Assembly: GCA_951406725.2 (NCBI GenBank)
Contig: OX597833.1
Span: 41,416,001-41,480,000 of the forward strand
Source of the DNA: Octopus vulgaris
Lineage: Eukaryota
Reading direction: 5' to 3'
Length of the DNA: 64,000 bases
Within the stretch, counting starts at the first letter, position 1. Each line of letters starts with the position of its first letter. The notes beneath the pieces were generated by a model. It was not told the DNA's origin. It did no database searches and saw only the letters and a program-made list of their open reading frames with translations. A program made the translations under genes and the position numbers. This document shows, piece by piece, positions 2,973 to 56,509 of the stretch.

Positions 2973-3249
2973 TGTATGTATGTATGTATGTATGTATGTA
3001 TGTATGTATGTATGTATGTATGTATGTATGTATGTATGTACGTTTGTACAATGACTGGTGACAGCTAAAAGCTCTGCCCAGCTGTCTTCTCAGATCATTT
3101 ATCATGTTAAAAAATATTTCATTTGAATCTTCATTTCGTGTTGGGTTCTATATCAGATAATGTTTAATCCCTGTCTAACATAGCGCTATATATGTCAAAC
3201 ACCTACGCCTACGCCTTTATATATGTATATATGTGAGTGTGAGTGAGTG

Positions 3250-3280
<31 letters not shown>

Positions 3281-3395
3281 CCTGTATGTACGTGCATATA
3301 TCTATACATTATGTAATACCTAGTTATCGATATTTATTTGTGCGCATGTAGGTATAATATTTATCTGTGTATATCTAAACCCACTTATCTATTTG

Positions 3396-3437
<42 letters not shown>

Positions 3438-3738
3438 CACACATACACGCACATTCACTCATACACACGCAGTCACATACATGGACACTACGAGGAAGTT
3501 GTTTGGTTGTTTATCTTAATCACGGATCACATTATCAAACTATTATCGCTATCGAATTAAATACTATCCGCTTATGAGAAACAAAATCTCAGAGCATTAA
3601 TATCATAATTTTCAAGTAACCCTTGAATAAGTCCCAACACGTGCGTATTTTGTCTTCCGGTTACCACAACCACCATCACCGTGCTCACTGTTACAACAAC
3701 AGACGACAATCACGACAGAACTGTATTCACATTTTCAA

Positions 3739-4125
3739 TCTTTATATATAAAGCTGAAGTAGTCTGTGTGTGGCAGGTTTGGTAGCCTTCAACTAACACT
3801 ATCTCCTCCGAGACCCTGCCGCGCAAGTTGACCAAAATTGAGAGTATGATAGAAGGCCTGCTCTTCCTTCCGTAAAAGAAAAACTTCAAATCGGACCATG
3901 TTAAGACCAAAAATTATTTACATCAAAAAGGTGCTTTTTTTCTATGAAAATCCCTATTTTTTACGATTTTTTGACTGCTGTGTCGCCATTTTTCGGTGTA
4001 TTTCAACCAGAAAAATGTTCACTTAAAGAGAATAACAAGCTACATAATGCAAAATTTTTACTTTTCAAAAATTCCAATTCTAAAGGGTCGAAACAAACCC
4101 GAGCAACGCCAGGCGATACTGCTAG
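3739..4125 (+). mobile_element. Non-autonomous Helitron (copy H2)
   Basis: A|TCTTTATATATAAAG start; same 3' hairpin and CTAG|T end as H1; different interior. Confidence 0.8.
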
Positions 4126-4450
4126 TAATTCTATACAGTCAACCTTACCTCCATGTTCATCAATTGTTACCACCGCTACTACATCTACAACTATTACCAC
4201 TACTATTATGTCTACCATTATCACTACTACTATTGCTACTAATGTGTTTTGGATGACGAATACGAAGATGATGACAAGACAAAAGCGAGAGGTGCAATAC
4301 CTATGAAGATGTAGTATTTGTAAGGTTATGATGATTAAGGACAATTATGATGATGAAATTCTTTGTATTGGCTATGATCGGCAGTAGTAGTTTGCTCATT
4401 TTTCGGTGTGGGTTAAGATATGTGTGTTCATACAAACATATATATATATA

Positions 4451-4775
4451 CTAGCACTATGACCCGGCAACGCCGGGTCATAGTGCTAGTGCATGCATAT
4501 ACAGCTGCGTGCGTATACAGTTAGCTGGCATTCAATTGGCGTATCAAGTTTCGGGCATTTTGATTGGGTTTGGGATAGAAAATTCACAAAAAAGTCGCTT
4601 CTATTGATTTTTTTAATGGCTTTGCGGGGTGACTGGGGAAATGTAAAGATGTGCACGACCACCCTTGGACGGTTTTGAATGACCATAGAAACTGCGAGCC
4701 CTCTAACTGAAAAATTGTGGATTTGTATAAAGGATACGCACACACACACACACACACACATTTTCCCGTTTATCG

Positions 4776-4780
<5 letters not shown>
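4451..4780 (-). mobile_element. Helitron-like element with a fully palindromic 3' end (H5)
   Basis: CTAG end at 4451 within a perfect 19-bp-arm hairpin (4450-4490) that has the same CCCGGC-AAC-GCCGGG core; 5' boundary approximate. Confidence 0.6.
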
Positions 4781-4808
<28 letters not shown>

Positions 4809-5654
4809 TGTATGTATGTATGTATGTACATGCGTGTGCGCGCTCACGTGCTTGTGTGTGTGCGTGCGTCAGAGAATGTAGAAAGTAATTTCAAAGATTT
4901 GCTGATGGGACCTTCGGACACTCATCAGTAAAATTTTTGAAGCAACAATCAATATTCTTAGAATAGATACTATATTTTACACATGGATTCAGTTTTCTAT
5001 CCGATTGATGTTTGTTGCTATAGAAATTATTTAAAAACACTAATTTTTATGTGTGTGCGTGTATACATACATACACACACATATATTTAAATTTAGGTCA
5101 GTTCAAATATGTTTGTGAGACACTTGATACTTGACCTATGAAAACGCCATTTTCACTGCAGTTTGCCATGGAGAAAATTCCCGTTTTAGATATTAAGTGT
5201 CTAAATAACGTCAATCATTTCGGGGCGCCCTCTATAGTAGACCGATAAATGCATTTCTAGCTATTTGGCTACCATCAGTACCGAACACTACAAAAGAGTG
5301 ATAACCATGAAGTGACTTTGGAAGGTATGGTTTCCTTTGTAGAAAATCAGCAAAACTATTTACTAGCTACGTGTGATCAACCGCCATGCTCGAATAAATT
5401 ATATAGTATGTATGCGAAGCTATATTATGAAGTAAGCAAACTTTTTCAACCATTTCAAATATGTTTGTGACATATTTGATCTGTAAAAACGCTATTTTCC
5501 CTAGGATCGCATATGAGGCGGAGATAACATAGAAAGATCTCCGGGTGGTGACATAAGACGCTTTGTTGGGATTCTTCGTTATTTGAGTACAACAGAAAGC
5601 TCTTTCAGGATCATTTTAAAATCCGGAAGAGACATAGCGTCACAACAGTGAGGC

Positions 5655-5852
5655 CAGTGGCGGATTTACCATTGTGCTTAGGTGTGCTTGAGCACAGGGC
5701 CTCGTTGACTGGGGGTTGGGGTCCATCTTCTCGCCCCCAAAAGTCTTCATGATAAACTTACTCTTTTACTCTGAGCATGTATGCCTGACTATCCAAGCAA
5801 GGCTTCATGACTTAACTAGCACAGGGCCTCATTTATCCTAAATCCGGCACTG
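5655..5852. mobile_element. hAT-like MITE
   Basis: TIRs CAGTGGCGGATTTA / TAAATCCGGCACTG; 8-bp flanks AGTGAGGC / GGTGAGAC (6/8); internal repeat AGCACAGGGCCTC twice. Confidence 0.75.
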
Positions 5853-7397
5853 GGTGAGACGCGTATAGCTATGGGAAAAAATGCATAATATAACATCAAT
5901 TAAGGATTACTGAAAAAAGTGACAACCTTACCTAAACAGAAGTAGGAGAATTATTCTGAAGAATTCACTCCACACAGAAGCTTTCTTGATCTCTGAAAGC
6001 GAAGTTTCCCTCTTGTCCTCATGGCTGGAAATATATTTTAGTCAATTATTCGGTTCCATCCTAGCTAAGGACTGGCTTTTGTTCGTTTGTAGAACTCTCG
6101 TTATAATACGGTATTCCCCCATTCACACACACGCATGCACACAACCCCAACACATTCACAGAGCCATGCATAGATATTAAAAAACGCTCCCTACATCTCC
6201 CCATTTTCTCTCTCTCTCCACCTTACTTTCACCCTTTCCTTTCCATAATCTCAGAATACAAGAATACAAAAAGCATAACTGCCACTTCAATGACTAAAAA
6301 GACCAATCTAAGCCGGCGTTTTTTCTTTCTTTCATTTTTTTTATAACTTCAGACATCCCTGGGTTTCGTTCCAGTATTTTTACATCTCTAATACTCGTAA
6401 ACCGGATGTGGTCTATTTAGACTTCTAGTACAAAAGATCCCAAGATCTCTTTTATCAAGCCATGTTTGATGACTGTTAAATTACAGTTACATATTAGGAA
6501 GTTCCTGAGCACGAAACCACTCGGTAACATGAATTGGCTGTTATGAAATTAAAATTATAATATCCTATGAATAATACACGCAGTTTATTACTGAATACAC
6601 CCTGTTTTTACTGACTCATGAAAACTTACTAAACGTTCTTTATTCCTGAATTTGTATGTACTTACTTTCATCGCTTCATTAACGCATTCCATGAACGGTA
6701 ATTCTAGTACTTGCAAAATCTGCCGAACACATTGTCTGTGACTATATAATGAAACTATTTACTATTTATAGCAGAGTCTGATGTTAACCTGTCATGAAAT
6801 GTGCATGTGGCCTCTTCGTTAAGTCACAGCATAATTATATTTATGGGTGTATATATATATATATATTCATTTATATGTATGTGACGGATCATGTAGCGTC
6901 GCTTATATAAATAACAGAGATTACGAAACAACTGTTTACAAATGGAATAAACGTCTACTCTATCACTTCACTTCTCTTATTTGCACCATTGCGATTCCTG
7001 GATTCAGAACGACAGTGAAATTCCATCCAACCCTTAACCACGGTCTTTCTCGATAGCTCTGCACCAGGCGGCGAGCTTACTGTGAGTCCTGTTTAGTTCT
7101 TTGAATCGCTATTCATATCGTGCGTGTGTGTGTGTGTAAATGTGTGTGTGTTTTGTGTGTATGTATGAATGTATGTATGTATATATGTATATATATATAT
7201 GTATGTATGTATAAAATGTATGTATTCTTATAATTTTATAGATAGATACATACATACATGCATACATACATACATACATACATACATACATACATACATA
7301 CATACATACATACATACACAAACAAGCATATATGCACACTGACACGCACATGCATATTTATATGCATCTTTCTACAAGAAACCAATATGTTAGCTTT

Positions 7398-7667
7398 TGA
7401 TACTCTTTTACTCTTTACTCTTTTACTTGTTTCAGTCATTTGACTGCGGCCATGCTGGAGCACCGCCTTTAGTCGAGCAAATCGACTTCCAGGACTTATT
7501 CTTTGTAAGTCTAGTACTTATTCTATTGGATCTCTTTTGCCGAACCGTTAAGTTACGGGGACGCAAACACACCAGCATCGGTTGTCAAGCGATGTTGGGG
7601 GGACAAACACAGACACACAAATACACACACATACACACATACACACACACACACGCACGCACGCACA

Positions 7668-7738
<71 letters not shown>

Positions 7739-7904
7739 TCATATACAGGACGGGCCTCTTTCAGTTTCCGTGTACCAAATCCACTCATAAGGCTTTGGTC
7801 GGCCCGAGGCTATAGTAGAAGACACTTGCCAAGGTGCCACGCAATGGGAATGAACCCGGGACCGTGTGGTTGGTAAGCAAGCTACTTACCACACAGCCAC
7901 TCCT
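7398..7904 (-). mobile_element. tRNA-derived SINE, family A (CORE-like CCTTGGGCAAGT motif, central (TG)n, GTAAAAGA tail)
   Basis: Near-identical to many other copies in the window; the head has A/B-box-like TGGCTGTGTGG ... GGTTCA motifs. Confidence 0.9.
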
Positions 7905-8039
7905 TTAGGAAATTATAAATTTATATATAAAATGCAATTAATTTATATTATCTTTTAAAATATCTGCAAATTATTTTGCATAAATAACGATTTATTTAAC
8001 TAATAAAGAATCCGTTTATTTTGAGAGTCTTGCTATCAA

Positions 8040-12224: not shown

Positions 12225-12640
12225 CGGTGCGAGCTGGCAGAAACGTTAGCACGCCGGGCGAAATGCTTAACTGTAGTTCGTCTGTCTTTATGTTCTGAGT
12301 TCAAATTCCGCCGAGGTCGACTTTGCTTTTCATCCTTTCAGGGTTCATAAATTAAGTACCAGTTGCGTATTGGGTTCGATCTAATCGACTGGCTCCCTCC
12401 CCAAAAATTTCGGCCCTTGTGCCTAGAGTAGAAAAGAGAGCTGGCAGAAATCGTAAGCATGACGGGCAAAATATTTTGCGGCATTTCGCCCGTCGCTACG
12501 TTCCGAGTTCAAATTCCGCCGAGGTTGACTTTGCTTTTCATTATTTGGGGTCAATAAATTTAGTACCAGTGAAACACTAGGGTCGATGTAATCTACTAGT
12601 CCCCTCATCACAAATTCCAGATCTTGTGCCTATAGTAGAA
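12225..12640 (+). mobile_element. Two tandem SINE family B copies
   Basis: GAGCTGGCAGAA head occurs twice, each followed by the central domain. Confidence 0.8.
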
Positions 12641-12643
12641 AAG

Positions 12644-12688
<45 letters not shown>

Positions 12689-14949: not shown

Positions 14950-15555
14950 AAGGCGGCGAGCTGGCAGAATCGTTAGCACGCCGGGCGAAATGCTTACCGG
15001 TATTTCGTCTGCCGTTACGTTGTGAGTTCAAATTCCGCCGAGGTCGACTTTGCCTTTCATCCTTTCGGAGTCGATAAATTAAGTACCAGTTAAGCACTGG
15101 GGTCGATATAATCGATTTAATACATATGTCTGTCCATGTTTGTCTCCTCTATGTTTAGCCCCTTGTGGGTAATAAAGAAATAGGTATTTCGTCTGCCGCT
15201 ACGTTCCGAGTTCAAATTCCACCGAGGTCGACTTTGCCTTTCATCCTTTCGGGGTCGATTAAATAAGTACCAGTTACACACTGTGGTCGATATAATCGAC
15301 TTACTCCGTTTGTCTGTCCTTGTTCGTCCTCTCTGTGTTTAGCCCCTTGTGGGTTGTTAAGAAATAGTTATTTTGTCTCCCGCAACGTTCTGAGTTCAAA
15401 TTCCGCCGAAGTAAACTTTGCCTTTCATCCTTTCGGGGTCGATAAATTAAGTACCAGTTACGCACTGGGGTCGATATAAATTGACTTAATCCGTTTGTCT
15501 GTCCTTGTTTGTCCCCTCTATGTTTAGCCCCTTGTGGGCAATAATGAAATAAGAA
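14950..15555 (+). mobile_element. Trimeric SINE family B array (184-bp period)
   Basis: Unit restarts at 15000, 15184 and 15368; only the first unit has the head. Confidence 0.9.
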
Positions 15556-17217: not shown

Positions 17218-17519
17218 ATGGATTTTTTCTATAAATTTATATTTCTTACTGTTTCGTCTGGACTTAGCTGTTGGGGATTTCAACAGTTGACGGAAGAGGA
17301 AAGCACTAAGTTGGAAAGGTTTGTAGCCTTATCGGTCCAATGTTCTGGTGCTCACGCTGCCAGTGTGTCGCTTATACGTAACTCCACCGTACTTTACAGG
17401 AATGGTTACGGTCATGGAAGTCCGCCGATCGATAAGAACACGACTTTCTGTATTGGAGGTTTGACCAAGCTGTTCACAGCCGTCTTACTATCAAAACTTA
17501 TCGATGCTCGCAACAGCAG
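17218..17519 (+). CDS. First coding exon of a secreted beta-lactamase-related (PBP/serine hydrolase family) protein, SxxK replaced by GxxK
   Basis: Good start context CAACATGG; N-terminal hydrophobic signal-like peptide; family-typical segments SVSLIRN..VLYRNGYG and IDKNTTFCIGGLTKLFTAVLL; strong donor CAG|GTAAGC at 17519/17520 (phase 2). Later exons not found in the window. Confidence 0.85.
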
Positions 17520-17891
17520 GTAAGCAACGCATAAAAGTATTGGCTTTTGCATACACACAAACACACACACACACACAGTGTCTCTCTCACTATCTCTCTT
17601 TCTTTCTCTATCACAAACACGCACACACTTGTTCTCTCTCTCTCTCTTCTTTCTCGGGCCCCCACTTTTCCATTTATAAATATAATTTATTATGTATTCT
17701 AGCTATCGTTAAATTTCTTACTAATTACCTATCACACTACTTATCTCTCTATATATATATTTATATGTATATATATACATACACACACACACATATATAT
17801 ATGAATGAACAAAGACTTCTCTCTTTATATCTATCTATTCTTCCACCCATTTATCTATGTATGCTTATTTGTCTACCTATCTACATCTCTC

Positions 17892-27190: not shown

Positions 27191-28859
27191 ACACACATAC
27201 ATACATACTGTATGGTAAGGTTTCAGCAAGAAGTATAGCACACGATCAGTTAAGAGAGTAAATATGTTATAATAAAAACCACAAGCCTTGTCATATGGTT
27301 ACCCAGTGTTTCTTGGCCGAAATATTAAATTATTTCGCCATTTATCAAACTGTTAAATACAAGACGGTCTGATAATCGTGTTCGATGCACTCGACGTTTG
27401 AGTGAGCACGGAGAAACACAGGGGAGATAATTAACTTCACAGTAAATATAACCAGTGTCTTACGGATATCAAAATTGCAAAACCAACACTGGAATGGTTT
27501 ATGATGTGTGATAGTTTTATCTTTAATTTCCGCTAAGATGTATTTTTTTAATTTTTAAATGATAAACTATAAATTTTTCATAGAAATCAGAGCTAGCACT
27601 GTAAGTTACAACGTTTCGTATACGTATACGTCTATGCAAACAACGCGATCGAAGATAGATAAAAATAGGTGTATATACGTATTTCAAGAGTTATTGCACT
27701 TCCATCAGCACCACATCCAACTCAACACCTCTCCACGAACGCATTGTTTAAATACTCATTAAGTTTAGCGGTGTAACACTATTGGATAGACCAATTTACA
27801 TATCAAACACATTCTTGGCAGCTGGTACATAAATATTAATTACTAGCAAGAACTCAGTAATTCGTTTTGCTTCCATAATATACTTCCAAATATATTAAAA
27901 GTTTAAAAATCAATATTCAGTCTTACGTTTTGTGTTGGAAGTTTTGACTTGGTTTGTGCTGCCTTGGTTTGTGCTGCACCTTGGCTCTGATGGGTGTTGA
28001 TAAGCAGGGTATATAAATGATCAATATACAAAACTTGTTTCTTTTTTGGCAATGATGATGAATGTGTAATTCGTGATTTGTGACAAGTACATCATTTCTG
28101 AATGTACTGAAATGAATCGGCGAAAGAAAGCCTAAACTCATTACAGATTTTTATTTAACTGTTATGTAATTCCACAACTGCGACCAGTTCGAAGAAAACA
28201 CAAAAGTCTGAACTATAGATGACGGTCTGTTTGCATGGAAAATCTCTTATTCAGTCCTTATAGTAATCTGCCACTAAGTGTATTGAAAGGGGAAGGTAAA
28301 GGGTTCAAAACCCGTGCGTGTGAAATTTGGGCTTAGGGGCTAGGACTGAGAAAATTAAGTGTGGACGAAATTGATTTGTGACTGCTGTAGGAAAACTGAC
28401 TAAAAGTGACAGAAATAAACTATCAAAAAGTGAAAGAATTGGCTGGGTTTTTTTACCTTTTTACAGGTATTGCGAATATATATACCTGAGTAAAATACAC
28501 ACTAAATCAGTGAAATTAAAATTGAGAGGATCTAGCTAGATTCAACTCTGTTAAACCTAAATGATAACGAAATTGATAGGCCACACAAATGGATTTTAAG
28601 TGCACCATCAGAGAACAAAGGAAACGAACACGAAGGTTAGGTTTAGTATAGATTGTTGAAACGAAAAAGCAATTTCAGCCATCAAAAAACCACAGAGTAA
28701 AGTTCTTGGCACAAACATACAGTGTCTTGAAAAATATAACAGTGTTTGGTTTATGCACCGCTTTTGCTGCGGTTTACGTTAATAACCAGAGCATACAAAC
28801 TAGAATTATGGAAAAACTCGCTCTTTTTTTTTCTTATAATCAACCAATCAAAATATTCC

Positions 28860-30888
28860 CACACGCAACATCCACATTCAACAACAATGAAAAGACTAGA
28901 GCTGGAAAAACTTCATCTGCAGACTAACATGAAAACCTCCATTGAAAATCAAAGAGCTGTGGAGGAACAATGGGTAATCAAAAACATCAAACAGAACCCA
29001 AAAGTGTTCTATTCTTATGCAAATAAGCATAGAACCACTGTCTCACCTATTGGGCCATTGATTGATGAAAACGGCATTCCCCAACACGATGCTAAAGAAA
29101 TGGCAGAAATACTGCAGAAACAATATTGCTCTGTCTTCAGTGTTCCCACTGATATTGATGTGAGGGAAACGAACGAAGCTGACTCCCAACACAAAATCGC
29201 AGACATAACCTTCACTGCCACCGACATCGTAGCAGCAATAAATGAGGTCAAACATTACTCCGCTGTAGGCCCTGATAGATTTCCCGCCAGTCTCCTGAAG
29301 GAATGTAGATATCAACTTGCAGTCCCTCTGACCAACCTCTGGAGAAACTCGTTAGACGCAGGTTATATACCGAATAAGTTTCTATCCCAGTCGGTCATCC
29401 CGGTTTTCAAACAGGGAAACAGATCCCTCGCAGTCAACTATCGCCCAATCTCACTCACCTCCCACATCATTAAAGTGTTTGAAAGAGTGTTAAGATCAAG
29501 GATAGCTGACTTCCTGGAGACCCACAAACTCCTAAATTCAAATCAACATGGCTTTCGCTGTGGCAGGGACTGTCTAACACAGCTCTTACACCACATTGAA
29601 GATGTACTCAAAGCCTTGGGAACAGGTTCGAACTCTGACGTCATATACCTTGACTTCAGTAAAGCGTTCGACAGGGTAGACCATAACATCCTACTCTCAA
29701 AATTGGCAAATGTTGGAATCCGTGGAAAAGTTCTACACTGGATTCAGTATTTCCTAGCGAATAGAACACAACATGTTGTAGTTGATGGAGTCCACTCAAA
29801 CCCAGCAAAAGTCACCAGCGGTGTTCCCCAGGGAACTGTTTTGGGTCCGCTACTCTTCATAATTTATGTAAACGACCTTTCCAGTGTCGTACATCACTGC
29901 AAAGTGAAAATATTCGCTGATGACACTAAGCTCCAGCAAATCGTCAATGAAGAAGCAGACCGAACTCAACTCCAGTCTGACCTATATGCTGTGAGTCAAT
30001 GGGCAGACAGAAACAAAATGCAACTGAATGAGGGAAAATTTGAGCTGATGCATTTTGGAAGAAATTCCTCACTAAAACAACCATACTCTCTTCCTTCAGG
30101 GGAACCGCTCACAGCCTCTAACAATATCAGAGACCTGGGTGTAATTGTTGATGACGATCTCAGTTGGAGTGCACACATCAACAAGAAGGTCGATACAGCT
30201 CGTAGGATGAGTTCCTGGATCTTAAGAACTTTCCGGTCCAGAGAACAAGGTGTCATCATACCACTTTTTTCATCCTTTGTACGGCCACACCTTGAATACT
30301 GCTGCCCACTGTGGTCTCCTCACACAAGACAAAACATCTCCAGAATTGAGTCACCCCAGAGGGCTCTCACTAAACAAATTGAAGGCATGGCTGCTCTCGA
30401 CTATTGGGATCGCCTTAAAGCCTTGAAACTTTACTCCCTCCAGCGTCGCCGTGAGCGGTACATCATTTGTACGATGTGGAAAATATACCGCCAACTTTGC
30501 CCAAACGACCTAAACATTAGCTTCAAGGTTCATCCGAGACTTGGACCACGGGCTATACGTCCCCTGCCAAATTCAAGATCACAACATACATGTACACTGC
30601 AACATAATTTCTTTTCCTCAACAGGCCCTGCCCTATTTAACATTGTCCCGAGGGAGATCAAAGAGGAAAAGGATCCCATCAACTTCAAACAGAGTCTGGA
30701 TAGATTCCTTCAAAGAATAACAGACAAGCCACCCATAATTGGATACAACTCACCCAACAAGAACTCACTACTTGAACAAAACTTGACTTAAACAGGATTC
30801 GAATAATCCTATCAGGTGGTGCTATTAAGTTAGACATGGCCTGGACCAATCTCTGGTCGAAACATATCTAAGTTTTATCTAAGTTTTT
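28860..30888 (+). mobile_element. 5'-truncated LINE with 3' UTR stem-loop and tandem-repeat tail
   Basis: After the stop: hairpin GACCA-ATCTC-TGGTC and tail (ATCTAAGTTTT)2; no TSD identified; 5' boundary approximate. Confidence 0.85.
28888..30791 (+). CDS. Reverse transcriptase ORF2 of a 5'-truncated CR1/L2-group non-LTR retrotransposon (no endonuclease domain)
   Basis: Motifs NPKVFYSY, GPD, NYRPISLTS, QHGFR, YLDFSKAFD, GVPQGTVLGP, IFADD, RDLGV, RPHLEY, SLQRRRERY; stop-free for >630 codons. Start given at the first in-frame ATG; the true 5' end is missing. Confidence 0.93.
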
Positions 30889-31591: not shown

Positions 31592-31922
31592 TATATATAT
31601 ATATATATTCATATATATTTATTTCATTACTAATATAATGGTAAATAATTATTCATTTTAAAATTAATAATTATTACCAAGTAGTTTCGGTATGGAAAGA
31701 GAACCATTATCGGTAGGAATTTTTACAAAAAGTTTTATATATATATATATAAATTAGGGTGACGTATATTTGCCATCTCAATATGGCTACCCCTAAGGGT
31801 GGATGCTACTGTAGTTTTTATCCCCAGGGGGACACACTCCTCCAGCTGGCCATAGACACACTTTCTGTGTCCTGTCAGTATTTGCAAAGGGAAGTCATCC
31901 TTCCCGTCTTCAACTTATGATA

Positions 31923-31967
31923 CACACGGACTCGAGTTTCGAGGTATTGACCTCTCGTCAGCGTGTG
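31923..31967 (-). ncRNA. Minimal type I hammerhead ribozyme
   Basis: CACACG-CTGACGA-GAGGT(CAAT)ACCTC-GAAA-CTCGAG-TC-CGTGTG: 6-bp stem I, 5-bp stem II, palindromic stem III ACTCGAGT, GUC triplet. Confidence 0.9.
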
Positions 31968-32274
31968 ACAATCATAGTTGTCGGCGAGAATTAGATTTCC
32001 TTCACAAATACTTATACTTTTTCCAGCGTCCACTGTCGCTGATATTGAAAAAGTGAAATCAAACAATGATAAATATCAAAGTGAGTTATATACAGTAGCG
32101 GTAACACATCGTGACGTATATTTGCCATCTCAATATGGCTACCCCTAAGGGTGGATGCTACTGTAGTTTTTAGCCCCAAGGGGACACACTCCTCCAGCTG
32201 GCCATAGACACACTTTCTGTGTCCTGTCAGTATTTGCAATGGGAAGTCATCCTTCCCGTCTTCAACTTATGATA

Positions 32275-32319
32275 CACACGGACTCGAGTTTCGAGATATT
32301 GACCTCTCGTCAGCGTGTG
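32275..32319 (-). ncRNA. Minimal type I hammerhead ribozyme
   Basis: Same motif 352 bp away; one stem II G-C becomes G-U. Confidence 0.88.
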
Positions 32320-32607
32320 ACAATCATAGTTGTCGGCGAGAATTAGATTTCCTTCACAAATGCTTAGGGGTAGTCATATTGAGATGGCAAATATACGTCA
32401 CGATGTGTTACCGATACTGTATATAACTCACTTTGATATTTATCATTGTTTGATTTCATTGTTTGAGCGTCCAATAACACAGGGTGGATGCTACTGTAGT
32501 TTTTAGCCCCAAGGGGACACACTCCTCCAGCTGGCCATAGACACACTTTCTGTGTCCTGTCAGTATTTACAAAGGGAAGTCATCCTTCCCGTCTTCAACT
32601 TATGATA

Positions 32608-32652
32608 CACACGGACTCGAGTTTCGAGATATTGACCTCTCGTCAGCGTGTG
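32608..32652 (-). ncRNA. Minimal type I hammerhead ribozyme
   Basis: Identical to 32275-32319. Confidence 0.88.
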
Positions 32653-32877
32653 ACAATCATAGTTGTCGGCGAGAATTAGATTTCCTTCACAAATACTTAG
32701 GGGTAGTCATATTGAGATGGCAAATATACGTCACGATGTGTTACCGCTACTGTATATAACTCACTTTGATATTTATCATTGTTTGATTTCACTTTTTCAA
32801 TATCAGCGACAGTGGACGCTGGAAAAAGTATAAGTATTTGTGAAGGAAATCTAATTCTCGCCGACAACTATGATTGT

Positions 32878-32922
32878 CACACGCTGACGAGAGGTCAATA
32901 CCTCGAAACTCGAGTCCGTGTG
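32878..32922 (+). ncRNA. Minimal type I hammerhead ribozyme (opposite polarity)
   Basis: CACACG CTGACGA GAGGTCAATACCTC GAAA CTCGAG TC CGTGTG read directly on +. Confidence 0.9.
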
Positions 32923-33456
32923 TATCATAAGTTGAAGACGGGAAGGATGACTTCTCTTTGCAAATACTGACAGGACACAGAAAGTGTGTCTATGGCCAGC
33001 TGGAGGAGTGTGTCCCCCTGGGGATAAAAACTACAGTAGCATCCACCCTTAGGGGTAGCCATATTGAGATGGCAAATATACGTCACGATGTGTTACCGCT
33101 ACTGTATATAACTCACTTTGATATTTATCATTATATAAAATTTAGGAATAGCAGCCAAAAACCGCTTATTCCTATTTACTACAGATATAGTACCACATAT
33201 AACATTATTTGCAACTGACATAGGCAGAAGGAAAATAACGAAATTAAACAGTCTTTGGTCAATTGTGGACGAGTTTCTGGGTTAGAATTATAAAGAGCGC
33301 ATTCCCGTCATCAGCACAACAATCCAATCAATTATAGATTCGCAAATACTATTGACCAACCTCTTGCATCTCGATCCCGCGCCATCGGAGATTACAGAAG
33401 ATAGTCAGCACATCCAAATCCATATATCCATCGCTATTTTGTGACACACATGGTAA

Positions 33457-33861
33457 TCTTACTCTTTTACTTGTTTCAGTCATTTGACTGCGGCCATACT
33501 GGAGCACCACCTTTAGTCGAGCAAATCGACCCCGGGACTTATTCTTTGTAAGCCCAGTACTTATTCTATCGGTCTCTTTTTGCCGAACCGCTAGGTGACG
33601 GGGACGTAAGCACACCAGCATCGGTTGTCAAGCGATGTTGGGGGAACAAACACAGACACACAAACATATACACATACATACATATATATACATATATACG
33701 ACGGGCTTCTTTCAGTTTCCGTCTACCAAATCCACTCACAAGGCATTGGTCGGCCCGGGGTTAAAGCAGAAGACACTTGCCCAAGGTGTCACGTAGTGGG
33801 ACTGAACCCGGAACCGTGTGGTTGGTAAGCAAGCTACTTACCACACAGCCACTCCTGCGCC
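33457..33861 (-). mobile_element. SINE family A
   Basis: Full-length copy. Confidence 0.9.
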
Positions 33862-37756: not shown

Positions 37757-37799
37757 ACTTTGCTGAAGAGGTTTGCTGTGACCGAAACATGTCCTGAGT
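37757..37799 (+). ncRNA. Isolated minimal hammerhead ribozyme
   Basis: ACTTTG-CTGAAGA-GGTT(TGCTGT)GACC-GAAA-CATG-TC-CTGAGT; palindromic ACATGT stem III, GUC triplet; stem I has one mismatch and one wobble. Confidence 0.65.
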
Positions 37800-42989: not shown

Positions 42990-43560
42990 CAGACGTCTCA
43001 TTAAGTTCCCGCTGTTTTTTTTTTTTTAATTAAATTTTGAAAGGTTTAATAAAAAAAATTAACAACTAATTAATCAATAATGTATTCACCCTTGTTGCTT
43101 ACAACTTCTCAACGTTCAACAAGATTTTCAATACCTCGTTGGTAGAAATCACTCGATTCCGACTCGAAAAATTGATCCAGCCAAGTTCTCAATTCTGCAT
43201 CAGTATTGAACGAAACTCCGCGCATAGCATTTGAAAGAAATCGAAAGAGGTGGAAATCCGTTGGTACCAAATCAAGAGAGTACGGCGGGTGTGGCAGCAC
43301 TTCCCAGCCATGCGTTTGAATGGCTTCCTTGGTCATATTGGCGATATGAGGGCAGGCATTGTCGTGCAGCAGAAGAACTCCATACTGACGATTAGGTATT
43401 TTCTCTTGAATAGCCGTGTTGGGTAGTTCTTTCTGTTGAACATAGAATTCCGCGTTGAACGTTTGATTCCGTTCAAGCAATTCGTAATGGATAATCCCTT
43501 CCCAGTCCCACCATATGCAGAACATCGTTTTACGCGGATCGAGGGTCAGATTCAACGTAA
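42990..43560 (-). mobile_element. mariner transposon 3' fragment
   Basis: KTMFCIWWDWEGIIHYELL, LLHDNACPH, HPPYSLDLVPTDFHLF, FYQRGIENLVER; TA-flanked probable TIR CAGACGTCTCATTAAGTTCCC at 42990. Confidence 0.9.
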
Positions 43561-43599
43561 TGAGTCGATAAGCATGGTGGTAATTAAAATAAAAAGCCA

Positions 43600-44770
43600 A
43601 ATTTTTTATGATGATTTGAAGAAAAAGGCGAAACTTCCAATATTTTTTTTTCTTTTTATAAATGACTGGTGAAGCTGCCACTTCTGATTTAGAGGCTGTT
43701 ATCCTTAACAGCTGAAAAAAATTGAAGGGAGCTACACACCAGAGCAAGTGTATAATGTTAATGAGCCTGAACTTTTCTGGAAGGTCATGCCTGCTAGACC
43801 TTCTAATCGCGAGAAAAATCAACACTATGATTTAAAGCTTCGGAAAATCCTCTGATGCGTTTCCCAGGAGGAAATACCCCTAATGATATAATGTCAAAGT
43901 CCCTACGCGTGTATCATTTCGAAAATCCGAAGACTATCAGGCTACGCAAAGTCAAATTTACTTCTGATTTGGCGTTAAAATAACAAGTTGTAGATGACTA
44001 AGAGCCTCTTCCAAGAGTGGTTTGCGCACATTTTATTTGTTCTACTGCAGCAAATTACAATACTAATCATAAGGCCATCAATGTAATGCTCCTTTTAGAT
44101 AATGTACTAAGCTATCCAATGAACTTAAGGGCTTTCAAATAATGTGAGAGTAGAATATACCCACTAGTAAACAACTTCTTTGCTCCAGCTAACTTGAAGG
44201 CATATTATCTAAGAAGTTTCAAACATCTTATGAAAGTGATTGACAGGGTAGACAAACCTAGAGTTAGAGACTTCTTAAAGAAGTTCATCATAATCGACAC
44301 TTTGGACAGCATCGCTGGTTCATAAGAAGTGCAACAATCAACTTTGAATGGTGCTTGGGAAACATTTGGCCAGGCTGTATCCGTGACCTTACAAGTTTTC
44401 CACAAGCAGAAAGTTTACATCAAATTCGGAAAGATATTGTGACACTTCCAAATAATGTAAGGTTTGAAGAAGTCATAAAGAATGATATTTTTGAGTTACG
44501 AGTGCCCCATGGAGAAAGTTAATCTAACGAGGAGCTGATGAACAAAAAATGAGAGTATGGAAATTCCATTAAATCTACTTAAATTTAGTGCAAAGAATAT
44601 TTCTAAAAATTTGGCAAGATTTTGTTGATAACAAGCATAATTGTGAACGTAACATTAAAATTACAACAGAAGCTTACAATGAGCAGAGGTCTGCTATAAA
44701 CTTCAAACAATTTTTAAATAAGTTTTTCGCTTCTAAAGTAGATGTTGATGAGGATAAACAAACAGATAGA
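43600..44770 (+). pseudogene. Tigger (TIGD1-like) transposase relic
   Basis: MTGEAATSDLEA, GSYTPEQVYNVNEPELFWKVMPAR, VYHFENPK, MTKSLFQEWF, LLDN, TTSLLQ in broken frames. Confidence 0.8.
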
Positions 44771-52959: not shown

Positions 52960-54450
52960 TATCACTTTTCGTTCGAAATAACCATATTTATTTCTATCAA
53001 AATAGTTCCTTCCATTGTTGAGACACGGCTACGAAGGAGTGAGATGGAGGGAATTCCAGTTATGGAACACGTCCTCAAATGAGTCTTTAGAAGTTGTATG
53101 CGGTTCTTGTTGTGAATTTTTCTTCGATCTTTTCTATCATCTGAAACTGGTGACATCTAAAGGTGAATTTCAACTTTAGGAACAAAAGACAATCCACAGA
53201 ATCGGACGTCTTGGATGAGAATCATCTTGTGCTTCGCTAAGAAGTCTTGCATGATCAGATATTTTGTTGTGATGCAGTATCGTGGTTTTGTTTGTCTTTG
53301 TCTTGTCTTTGTCTCAGGCCCAGAAGTTACGAGAGGGTAACTGCTCAGGCATCTTCATTTCCACTACTCCCTCAAATGCGTCTGGGACATTCAAGTAAAA
53401 CTTTTTATTGATTGACAATATGGAACAAAATCTTATTTCTTTATTGCCCACAAGGGGCTAAACACAGAAGGGACAAACAAGGACAGACAAAGGGATTAAG
53501 TTGATTACATCGACCCCAGTGCGTAACTGGTACTTAATTTATTGACCCCGAAAGGATGAAAGGCAAAGTCGACCTCGGCGGAATTTGAACTCAGAACGTA
53601 ACGGCAGACGAAATACCTATTTCTTTACTACCCACAAGGGGCTAAACACAGAGAGGACAAACAAGGACAGACAAATGGATTAAGTCGATTACATCGACCC
53701 CAGTGCGTAACTGGTACTTATTTAATCGACCCCGAAAGGATGAAAGGCAAAGTCGACCTCGGCGGAATTTGAACTCAAAACGTAGCGGGCAGACGAAATA
53801 CGGCTAAGCATTTCGCCCGACGTGCTAACGTTTCTGCCAGCTCGACGCCTTGATAGACGACATCCTTCTAATAAGAATAAGACGAACAACATCACCTTTA
53901 CATTTGAGCGACTCTGATGTGCTTCTTTTCTTTCTATCGCTGCGACCACGACCCAACCTTTTTTTTTTTTTTTTTTTTGTCACCATAACCATACACCTAC
54001 GTTTAGGTTATGTCTGTTATGACATTTTGCATGAAGTGCTCATCAGCATTTGAACAATCAAACCACTCCTAGCTGTTTTATTGTTCCTGCAATACTAGAT
54101 GACTTCAATTTTTTTTTTTTTAATCTTGACATACACGTTTACAGACGCCTACTTCGTCAAAAACTTCAAGGACAATCAAGCGATGACTTTCAGAGATCAC
54201 AGACTGTATACTGCAATCTGATCGGCGTCTGCTGTGGTGGAAGGACCAGATTTGCGGTTGTCTTGGGTGAATGTTGTTCCAAATTTGAAAGGTTAATTCC
54301 ACTCGTGACATTGTGCGTATTGCAAATAATCCTCCCCTAAAAATGTCACCGAAAAAACAAAAGAAGTTTTTTTTTTCTCAATTTGAAACAAAATTTCAAA
54401 TAAAAATGTAACTCGATTATGTCTTTCATAGTTTAACTTGTGAAAATTTG
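52960..54450 (-). pseudogene. Degenerate mariner transposase interrupted by a SINE dimer
   Basis: KEAHQSRSNVKVML, ILHHN, QDFLAKHK, DCLLFLKLK, FEDVFHNW in broken minus frames; boundaries approximate. Confidence 0.65.
53431..53830 (-). mobile_element. Dimeric SINE family B
   Basis: Two units ~185 bp apart with the same junction as at 15184 and 58048. Confidence 0.9.
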
Positions 54451-54695: not shown

Positions 54696-56509
54696 AGATT
54701 TTTTCTATTTGGCTGCCAGCATTTCAAACATTAAAGTTTATCGAAAATTTTAAAATTTGGCACATTAATGTACTTTTCCAAGTTGAATTGCTGAAGTTAT
54801 TTTACTTTTTCCAGAAAAATGTTTTAAAAAGTTATAAAGGCTTAAAGTTTGATCGTTTTCACCCAGTTAGGAAACAGGGTTTGGGAGCTGTCATTTTGTG
54901 CGTGACTGCACATTTTCTTGTCAAAATCCTGAAAATAGCACGTGTTGTCAATATTTGTATTCTACACGGGGAAAACGAGTAAACAACACTTCTTTTGTAG
55001 TTTGAAGCGTTCAATATGTATTTAATGCGATAGCACGAACTTAAAAGATTTATCTAAAAACGTTATTTAGCCGTTATTTTTGGCACATCTCACAACCACC
55101 TTAAAGACAAAAAAAAAAACAGAAAGAGTAAACAACACGTCTTTTGTAGTTTTAAGCATTCAATATGTGTTAAATGCGATAAACGACACATTACATCCGA
55201 TAAGAAGCAACACATTACAAATTAGATATGCTTAAAAAAAACATTTAAGCATTACTACGAACTTAAAAGATTTATCTAAAAACAAAATAGCGAATTATAA
55301 ATTAAATATTTTAAAAATTGAAAACGAAAATTAGAAATGCATTCAATCAATTTCTTGAACAAATCACGATTTTCATAGTTCCTACGCCACATAAATCCAC
55401 AGAGATATGAATCTACCATAGAACGGTGAGTTCCACAGCGTCTTGAGCGCCTCGCTTTACAGAGGGCCGTGTACTCTCCACTTTTTTAGTGTGGGTACCA
55501 TCTTTCGAGTTAACAAAGCCAGCGTTGTGGTTCACCGTTCTGTGCTCAAAATTGTAACCATCAATTTCAGAAATGTACGCCAGCCGTAAATCGCTGAAAA
55601 TTGTTGTTCCTGGAAGAAACGAGTGACGTATACATTCTTCTAGAGTGTCACTATTCCGACATAGCACCGCATACAGAAAAACTTGTCTGGTCTCGCGACA
55701 CTCTCCTCCGAAGACCCACTGCTCAGGTAGGACCCTTCCTCGGTTGTACTTCTGTCTTGAGAAGACTGTTTCGTCGATTTCAACAATCTTACCAGGACCA
55801 CCCATTTGAATTGGATGACGGAGCAAGTCCTCCGCACATACTTCCCTAGCATAGCTGTTATAATCATCCTCAGTTCTTTAACACAAAACCGAAGTGAAGT
55901 CAATTCCTTAACCCATGAGTAAAGGAAAAGCACTACAGTCCTAAAAAGAAAGGTCCCTCCTTCAAACCAAGTGTTTTTACTCACTAACAAAGACTGCATC
56001 CATTCTCGGCGCGAGCATCACCAGTACACATTCCCACCACGTCTTTTTGTAATCATAATATACTTCGTCCTAGTACATAATTTTCTTTTGGGTACAACAC
56101 TCTTTTCTTGTAGGTACGACACAGCATTCTACTCTAACTTCAGTGTTTCCATCATAGACGCGAGGTCACCGGAGCTTGCTGTCATAATCATCTAGGTAGA
56201 ACAGTAGAACACAGCGTCAACAAGTGGTTTCAGTTTCAATATATCTGTCAACACGTGCTTTCTCGCAGACAAAAGAGTTCTCGTGTTCCGCTTGGAAACA
56301 GGCATGAATGTGTCTGTGGCTTACGATTGACTAAAATTACCCAAAATTTTCAAAGTTTAATCGCTAATAACTCTTTATTTATTGATTTAAACAAAAATGA
56401 TTTTAATGACATTCATTAGTCTATAAAACTGTATCTTTACACTGAATATGAAATTAATTCGAACAGAAATTGATGCTGATTGACGCAGGGAGCCAAACAG
56501 AAAAGATCC
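54696..56509 (-). mobile_element. Full-length, decayed Merlin (IS1016/IS1595-like) DNA transposon
   Basis: Imperfect TIRs AGATTTTTTCTATTTGGCTGCC / GGGAGCCAAACAGAAAAGATCC; exact 8-bp TSD CAAATATA (54688-54695, 56510-56517). Confidence 0.92.
55325..56192 (-). pseudogene. Merlin/ISXO2-type DDE transposase pseudogene
   Basis: KNTWFEG, GGPGKIVEIDET, KYNRGR, WVFGG, PGTTIFSD, HRTVNH, FVNSKDGTHT, DSYLCGFMWRR; stops and frameshifts present. Confidence 0.92.

Follow-up and report, generated by a model that had tools for sequence, protein, structure and literature searches.

A hammerhead array on both strands of Octopus vulgaris DNA, probably a young retrozyme copy with a Penelope-type insertion footprint

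Why would a short stretch of octopus DNA carry hammerhead ribozymes on both of its strands? The window, by which we mean the whole 64-kb stretch analysed here, is animal DNA with many microsatellites. One locus in it holds four type I hammerheads, located through their cores in the sequence and through Rfam. Three are on the minus strand and one is on the plus strand. The original prediction read this as a unit, arrayed in tandem and inverted, that yields ribozymes in both polarities. The answer offered here is a different one: the array is probably a young copy of a non-LTR retrozyme, written in trans by a Penelope-like RT-endonuclease, with a junction that was later duplicated.

The four motifs are these:

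31923..31967, minus strand: hammerhead 1, core CUGACGA...GAAA at 31937-31961, predicted cut at 31929/31928
32275..32319, minus strand: hammerhead 2, core at 32289-32313, G-U in stem II, predicted cut at 32281/32280
32608..32652, minus strand: hammerhead 3, core at 32622-32646, G-U in stem II, predicted cut at 32614/32613
32878..32922, plus strand: hammerhead 4, core at 32884-32908, predicted cut at 32916/32917

The number of motifs, their strands and their intact cores are as originally predicted, and Rfam model RF00163 matches four out of four over model positions 1-45. The scores are 32.2, 32.2, 30.5 and 30.5 bits, all below the gathering score of 34, with E-values of 1e-5 to 4e-5 for the 1.5 kb searched. 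At the gathering level, Rfam returns no matches in the whole 64-kb window, and none of 7 Rfam matches is a ribozyme other than the hammerhead. The minus-strand cut sites are spaced by 333 and 352 nucleotides. The 352-bp distance claimed for the first two motifs is the distance between 32281/32280 and 31929/31928, and the change in stem II does keep pairing, from G-C to G-U.

A pattern scan of the 64 kb gives five core-like sites, which are the four motifs of the array and one at 37763. The latter (37763-37787, plus strand) looks like a hammerhead core with a GUC downstream, has no convincing stem I or III, and is probably there by chance. The exact 33-letter hammerhead pattern was found at no loci in metagenome contigs.

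Each motif has the CUGACGA/GAAA core, a GUC triplet and a stem II of 4-5 bp. Stem I consists of 6 bp, an internal loop and then a distal helix, while stem III is 2 bp with a palindromic loop of 4 nt. The word 'minimal', which had been applied to these hammerheads, does not fit, since stems of these sizes, with a tetraloop on stem III, are canonical. The min-HHR, as described in PMC4209133, has no stem III, a stem II of 7-8 bp and a stem I of 4-5 bp. Judged by its sequence, the octopus motif is the canonical metazoan type I form of that paper, without the min-HHR traits. It resembles the axolotl HHR_Amex2 (PMC7229834).

Folding predictions agree with the idea that the palindromic stem III acts in dimers. 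Stem III forms no stable hairpin as a monomer, and its self-duplex is predicted at -12.1 kcal/mol. The active fold of a single hammerhead is predicted to lie 5.9 kcal/mol above the minimum free energy (MFE). For a minus-strand RNA from 32660 to 31890, motif 3 is predicted to pair with motif 1 as a double hammerhead.

The sequence that carries the motif is a repeat of 352 nt. Positions in it are given as U1-352, where the reference unit is 32696-33047 on the plus strand, in ribozyme sense, with U1 at 32696. The unit has a GC content of 42.3%. Its trimer has no stop-free stretch longer than 84 codons in any of the six frames, so it is non-coding. As a circle it is predicted to fold at an MFE of -109.7 kcal/mol, compared with -82.5 +/- 5.2 for 100 dinucleotide shuffles (z -5.2).

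The unit is present in 20 of 24 sequencing runs among those listed, which come from 10 studies with 6 organism labels. None of these 20 is on record as RNA; eight are guessed to be RNA runs, with 0.49-0.59 of the words, a figure that has no bearing on expression. In each of the four DNA runs analysed by contig the unit is very abundant, with a summed contig depth of around 1e4-1e6. In run X2 it exceeds the depth of two near-identical flank contigs by a factor of roughly 3,000-8,000, which serves as a rough guide and not as a copy number. Among the 11 unit variants listed, only one falls within the motif, at N7, which is a free core position.

These are the traits by which non-LTR retrozymes are recognised (PMC7229834): a head-to-tail unit of 150-450 bp, a GC content under 50%, no coding capacity, high abundance and a self-paired circle. 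From its sequence, the locus is one copy of a 352-nt hammerhead repeat that is abundant and encodes no protein. The repeat is a non-LTR retrozyme for which self-cleavage is predicted. It had been proposed that such a unit would be mobilised in trans, with no RT/GIY-YIG ORF of its own, and the analysis supports this. No such ORF lies in or beside the array, and the sole RT in a Pfam scan of 5 proteins (4 window ORFs plus the host protein) is an RVT_1 domain. Mobility in trans is thus consistent with what is found at the array.

The two polarities are another matter. The antisense strand of the unit, examined as a dimer, has no hammerhead core, so a ribozyme on each strand of one monomer, a viroid-like trait, is absent. 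The unit carries its ribozyme in one polarity; hammerheads occur on both strands of the locus because the DNA is inverted, and two polarities as a design are not supported.

How the inversion is built can be read from the segments of the array:

31759..32366, minus strand: arm A, 608 nt, 1.73 units (U136-352, U1-352, U1-39), 3' end U39 at the left flank
32363..32458, plus strand: segment B, U1-96, duplicates the start of arm D and has D's U12 T allele
32459..32480, no strand: filler, 22 nt at the duplication breakpoint, with short snippets also found in the unit
32481..32699, minus strand: segment C, U136-354; segment B, the filler and C make up the duplication that spans the inversion junction
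32696..32699, no strand: head-to-head junction U136/U1, 4-nt overlap CTTA, repeated at 32363-32366
32696..33132, plus strand: arm D, 437 nt, U1-352 plus U1-85

The inverted arms at 31759-32149 and 32696-33086 span 391 nt with 2 differences, close to the 390 bp originally given. The joints between A and B and between C and D are one and the same head-to-head joint, U136/U1 with a 4-nt overlap. If one junction-spanning block is removed, what remains is a plain two-armed insertion of A and D. The two blocks differ from each other at 4 of 311 sites. The U12 T allele is common to B and to the first lap of D and is absent from A, so B was copied from D after the change at U12. Four independent insertions are ruled out by the identical junctions and the shared alleles. 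The array thus likely reduces, on this reading of its sequence, to one head-to-head insertion followed by a local duplication across the junction.

Snippets of 7-8 letters from the unit tile 15 of the 22 letters of the filler (P 0.045 against window stretches, 0.023 against shuffles). A filler made of unit snippets is suggestive of templated repair.

The third minus-strand hammerhead and the 333-bp period follow as products of this local duplication. The period is made up of 219 nt of sense unit, the filler of 22 nt and a 96-nt piece of antisense unit, minus the 4-nt overlap. Of the 333-nt unit in the original prediction, the spacing survives, while the separate unit or circle does not, being a chimera of the duplication at one locus. 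As a family unit, the 333-nt sequence was rejected: it is chimeric, and it folds at -81.4 versus -110.6 kcal/mol.

The two arms point outwards and end differently, with 3' ends at U39 on the left and at U85 on the right. Arm D consequently has a 46-nt extension. Two features at the ends matter here:

31745..31758, plus strand: left flank, AT-rich candidate target-site duplication, 12 of 14 letters matching 33133-33146
33087..33132, plus strand: extension U40-85, 46 nt, which arm D has at its 3' end and arm A lacks, candidate tail of Penelope type

A flank match as good as this one is found at 72 of 3000 random starts (P 0.024) and at 623 of 3000 AT-rich starts (P 0.21). No informative second copy of the flanks is present within the window. 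The one-sided extension measures 46 nt where 30-40 is usual, and U39 and U85 are end positions known from one locus alone. U39 lies within a predicted stem-loop, and U85 directly follows a small predicted one. U1 sits within a short near-palindrome. At most 10 nt before the left end a short (TA)n run stops, and the right flank is AT-rich.

The surroundings hold some further repeats. Some 80 nt to the left of the insertion there is a 41-nt AT-rich near-palindrome (31639-31679). The right flank, 33133-33447, is a diverged repeat of lower abundance, and an older element may have been the target of the array's insertion. From about 33448-33640 and beyond runs an extremely abundant interspersed repeat, probably a SINE. 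Its summed depth exceeds 1e7 in 3 of 4 runs, and text related to it is found again at many sites in the window.

Layouts of this type are known from Penelope-like elements (PLEs). As described in PMC8557442, their insertions have an inverted, 5'-truncated copy, partial tandems, a tail of 30-40 bp at one end and microsatellite targets. In Adineta, PLE copies lie head-to-head, and their junctions show overlap and palindromes (PMC3846280). The PAc protein of the anole cuts and extends both target strands in vitro, in AT-rich DNA; two adjacent internal start sites bound the tail, and mainly unprocessed RNA is used (PMC11167929). The octopus array has the inverted, 5'-truncated head-to-head copy and an AT-rich, microsatellite target.

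The proposed course of events runs as follows. Each unit has one type I hammerhead in a single polarity and no ORF, which is observed. By analogy with known retrozymes, tandem loci would give multimeric RNA that cleaves itself through double hammerheads and may circularise. Going by the layout and by PMC11167929, both target strands would then be cut and two cDNAs primed, at U39 and U85, and the two nearby start sites would give rise to the 46-nt tail. The cDNAs would have met and annealed over 4 nt at U136/U1, which would put arms A and D head-to-head. Later, some 311-317 bp across the junction would have been duplicated with a 22-nt filler. The duplicated pattern is observed, and such an event would add the third minus-strand hammerhead and the 333-bp period. 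Today the copy would be a passenger in a plus-strand intron, able to form a duplex of around 390 bp and releasing nothing.

In O. vulgaris, 31 Penelope-like families have been active recently (PMC13282606). On cleavage, a 2026 preprint reports that only 1 of 9 Xenopus dimers was cleaved in vitro (bioRxiv 10.64898/2026.07.22.740005).

There is also a reverse transcriptase closer by. An RVT_1 open frame of 683 codons (28740-30791, plus strand, E 5e-32) ends around 1 kb upstream of the array. We take it to belong to a young, 5'-truncated LINE of CR1/L2 type. As the helper it was set aside, having no GIY-YIG in the Pfam scan and an end that resembles those of CR1/L2-type LINEs. It is possibly a second source of plus-strand read-through.

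Elsewhere in the window, tandem units of 184 bp and 207 bp with shared sequence lie at 14999-15551, 53434-53801 and 12231-12644, probably a head-to-tail SINE family. Remnants of DNA transposons are seen on the minus strand at 43109-43831 (mariner-type Transposase_1) and 55413-55877 (ISXO2-like DDE_Tnp_IS1595).

What did the enzyme copy, a circle or a longer RNA? With one RNA circle as template, all laps would start out identical. The inner lap of A and segment C share their alleles at U206, U323 and U329, and the outer lap of A and arm D differ from them there. At U329 some 99% of the family's depth, in each of 4 runs, carries the letter of the inner lap, so the A that the outer lap and D have in common is a rare allele. 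If a single template is assumed, the inner lineage would have 5 changes in 217 nt, compared with 2 in 828 nt in the outer lap and D taken together (Fisher P 0.005), and segment C would have 4 in 217 nt (P 0.019); these comparisons are based on three sites picked after seeing the data, with a family frequency given for U329 only.

Taken from the sequence, the lap differences weakly favour, over one circle, an uncut multimer whose tandem source had diverged slightly. The same pattern would be expected from fold-back copying, from conversion between inverted arms or from assembly polishing. That a Penelope-type enzyme, working from both target strands, copied a retrozyme transcript that was multimeric, heterogeneous and uncut, and not one circle, is a tentative idea with the balance leaning against it. 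Should the multimer reading hold across copies, then in at least some families of octopus retrozymes the circles would be a by-product, and genome sequence alone would suffice to test the circle-template model.

The passenger role depends on the host gene, whose start is seen upstream:

17218..17519, plus strand: first coding exon of a gene with a beta-lactamase domain (PF00144), GT donor at 17520

The ORF 17218-17517 matches Octopus sinensis LOC115221601, a predicted gene model of 589 aa, at 100% identity over residues 1-100. The exon is also present in Argonauta, at 75% identity. A search of the window at E 0.01 did not recover residues 101-589, and no further exon was found in the next 46 kb. 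If the predicted gene model is followed, the array is therefore likely to lie in the first intron of a gene on the plus strand, and this intron would be longer than 46 kb. The sole host transcription that can be inferred at the locus is from the plus strand.

A plus-strand pre-mRNA would have one hammerhead in sense orientation, and the predicted MFE structure buries it in a 389-bp duplex with arm A. The long dsRNA foreseen for a read-through transcript is thus recovered in the prediction, as 389 bp in the register of the outer arms. A duplex of around 390 bp would likely be a substrate for ADAR or Dicer. A plus-strand transcript would offer no cleavage pair and would release no monomer. For the 352- and 333-nt pieces to be set free, a minus-strand transcript with its start inside the array would be needed.

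Other explanations deserve weighing. The hammerheads facing both ways might form a selected cassette, either for viroid-like symmetric processing or as a dsRNA regulator of the host gene. Arms that would form a 389-bp duplex fit this, and the likely intronic position would supply the read-through. The coreless antisense of the unit speaks against it, as do the single plus-strand motif, predicted to be buried, and the youth and generic PLE layout of the locus, and we regard the cassette as extremely improbable. The back-to-back layout is likely an ordinary Penelope-type footprint with a local duplication, and no new two-strand ribozyme system. The unit might also be the pLTR of an autonomous PLE, which would make the locus a 5'-truncated, partly tandem and inverted stump without a retrozyme life. 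PLE insertions do have this same architecture, and HHRs do occur in pLTRs (PMC4209133). Yet arm A runs head-to-tail through 1.73 units without any ORF sequence, no frame of the unit exceeds 84 codons, the whole unit is predicted to fold as a self-paired circle, and the hammerhead is of the canonical retrozyme type and not the min-HHR of metazoan PLEs; a stump of this kind is quite unlikely. The original prediction had kept in reserve a rearranged PLE-type remnant that is not a new system. This much of it agrees with the present reading; the pLTR stump does not, the unit behaving as a retrozyme monomer.

Two further doubts concern parts of the proposed course of events. The head-to-head junction could stem from one cDNA that folded back and primed itself, instead of two target-primed cDNAs: the cDNA end would anneal to a 4-nt match in the U1 hairpin, and the tail would reflect trimming by the endonuclease. 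Self-priming has been proposed for palindromic head-to-head junctions of PLEs (PMC3846280), and the short near-palindrome around U1 fits this. It would explain the near-identity of A's outer lap and D (2/391) and their shared A at U329, and the end of C and the start of D fall within 2 nt of one unit position. An extra trimming step is needed, however, and PAc in vitro cuts and extends both strands, with two adjacent start sites that match the tail (PMC11167929). We consider fold-back rather unlikely. As to the inner duplication, with segments B and C, the filler, the 333-bp period and hammerhead 3, it might be an assembly or polishing artefact in a high-copy repeat. Tandem and inverted PLE structures do trouble assemblies (PMC8557442), and contig coverage reached the right unit and flank only, no contig spanning the array. 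Private alleles on both copies (4/311) and a unique 22-nt filler would be unusual for collapse errors, which makes an artefact very unlikely. A young retrozyme copy written by a Penelope-like enzyme, and duplicated at its junction afterwards, is the reading we retain.

Hammerheads on opposite strands are not new. Pairs of them, and head-to-head copies, are already known for PLEs (PMC4209133, PMC8557442, PMC3846280). In Schistosoma mansoni, opposite-strand hammerheads lie 100-700 bp apart, much as here, and are ascribed to truncated PLEs (PMC4209133); those are min-HHRs without stem III, unlike the octopus motif. For the giant squid, 235 Hammerhead_1 hits are listed (PMC6962438). The literature searched yielded no paper that deals with retrozymes in cephalopods or with retrozymes inserted head-to-head.

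The closest relatives are the metazoan non-LTR retrozymes of PMC7229834, which include those of mussel (350-390 bp) and the axolotl Rtz_353 with HHR_Amex2. The octopus unit shares with them a non-coding tandem unit of around 350 nt, a GC content below 50%, a single type I hammerhead whose stem III has 2 bp and a tetraloop, a self-paired circular fold, high abundance and, for some, a mollusc host. It differs in that the octopus copy is head-to-head with a one-sided tail, and in that its cleavage and circles are putative. The terms 'inverted' and 'polarit' do not occur in the main text of PMC7229834, as far as that text was available.

Compared with insertions of EN+ PLEs (PMC8557442; Adineta Pen2a, PMC3846280; PAc, PMC11167929), the likenesses are a partial tandem, an inverted and 5'-truncated head-to-head copy, a short overlap at the junction, an extension at one end and an AT-rich target. 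The differences are the lack of an RT/GIY-YIG ORF, a tail of 46 nt versus 30-40, a canonical and not a minimal hammerhead, and an extra local duplication.

Li, Clavereau and Pollet propose in their preprint (bioRxiv 10.64898/2026.07.22.740005) that animal retrozymes derive from PLEs as non-autonomous elements. In the part of the preprint available, they argue from co-occurrence and from pLTR phylogeny in vertebrates, with no mollusc sampled. The octopus locus counts as an 'active' retrozyme by their standard, which asks for two units in a row with an HHR, and is consistent with the PLE dependence they propose. Insertion footprints are read here and not in that part of the preprint.

As a member of its kind the array is nothing unusual and adds one more retrozyme family from a mollusc. 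The differences between its laps have a bearing on the choice between a circle and an uncut multimer, from one locus with three informative sites. The literature proposes the link between retrozymes and PLEs mainly from co-occurrence; the clean footprint seen here, with its head-to-head arms and tail, links a protein-less hammerhead repeat to Penelope-type insertion.
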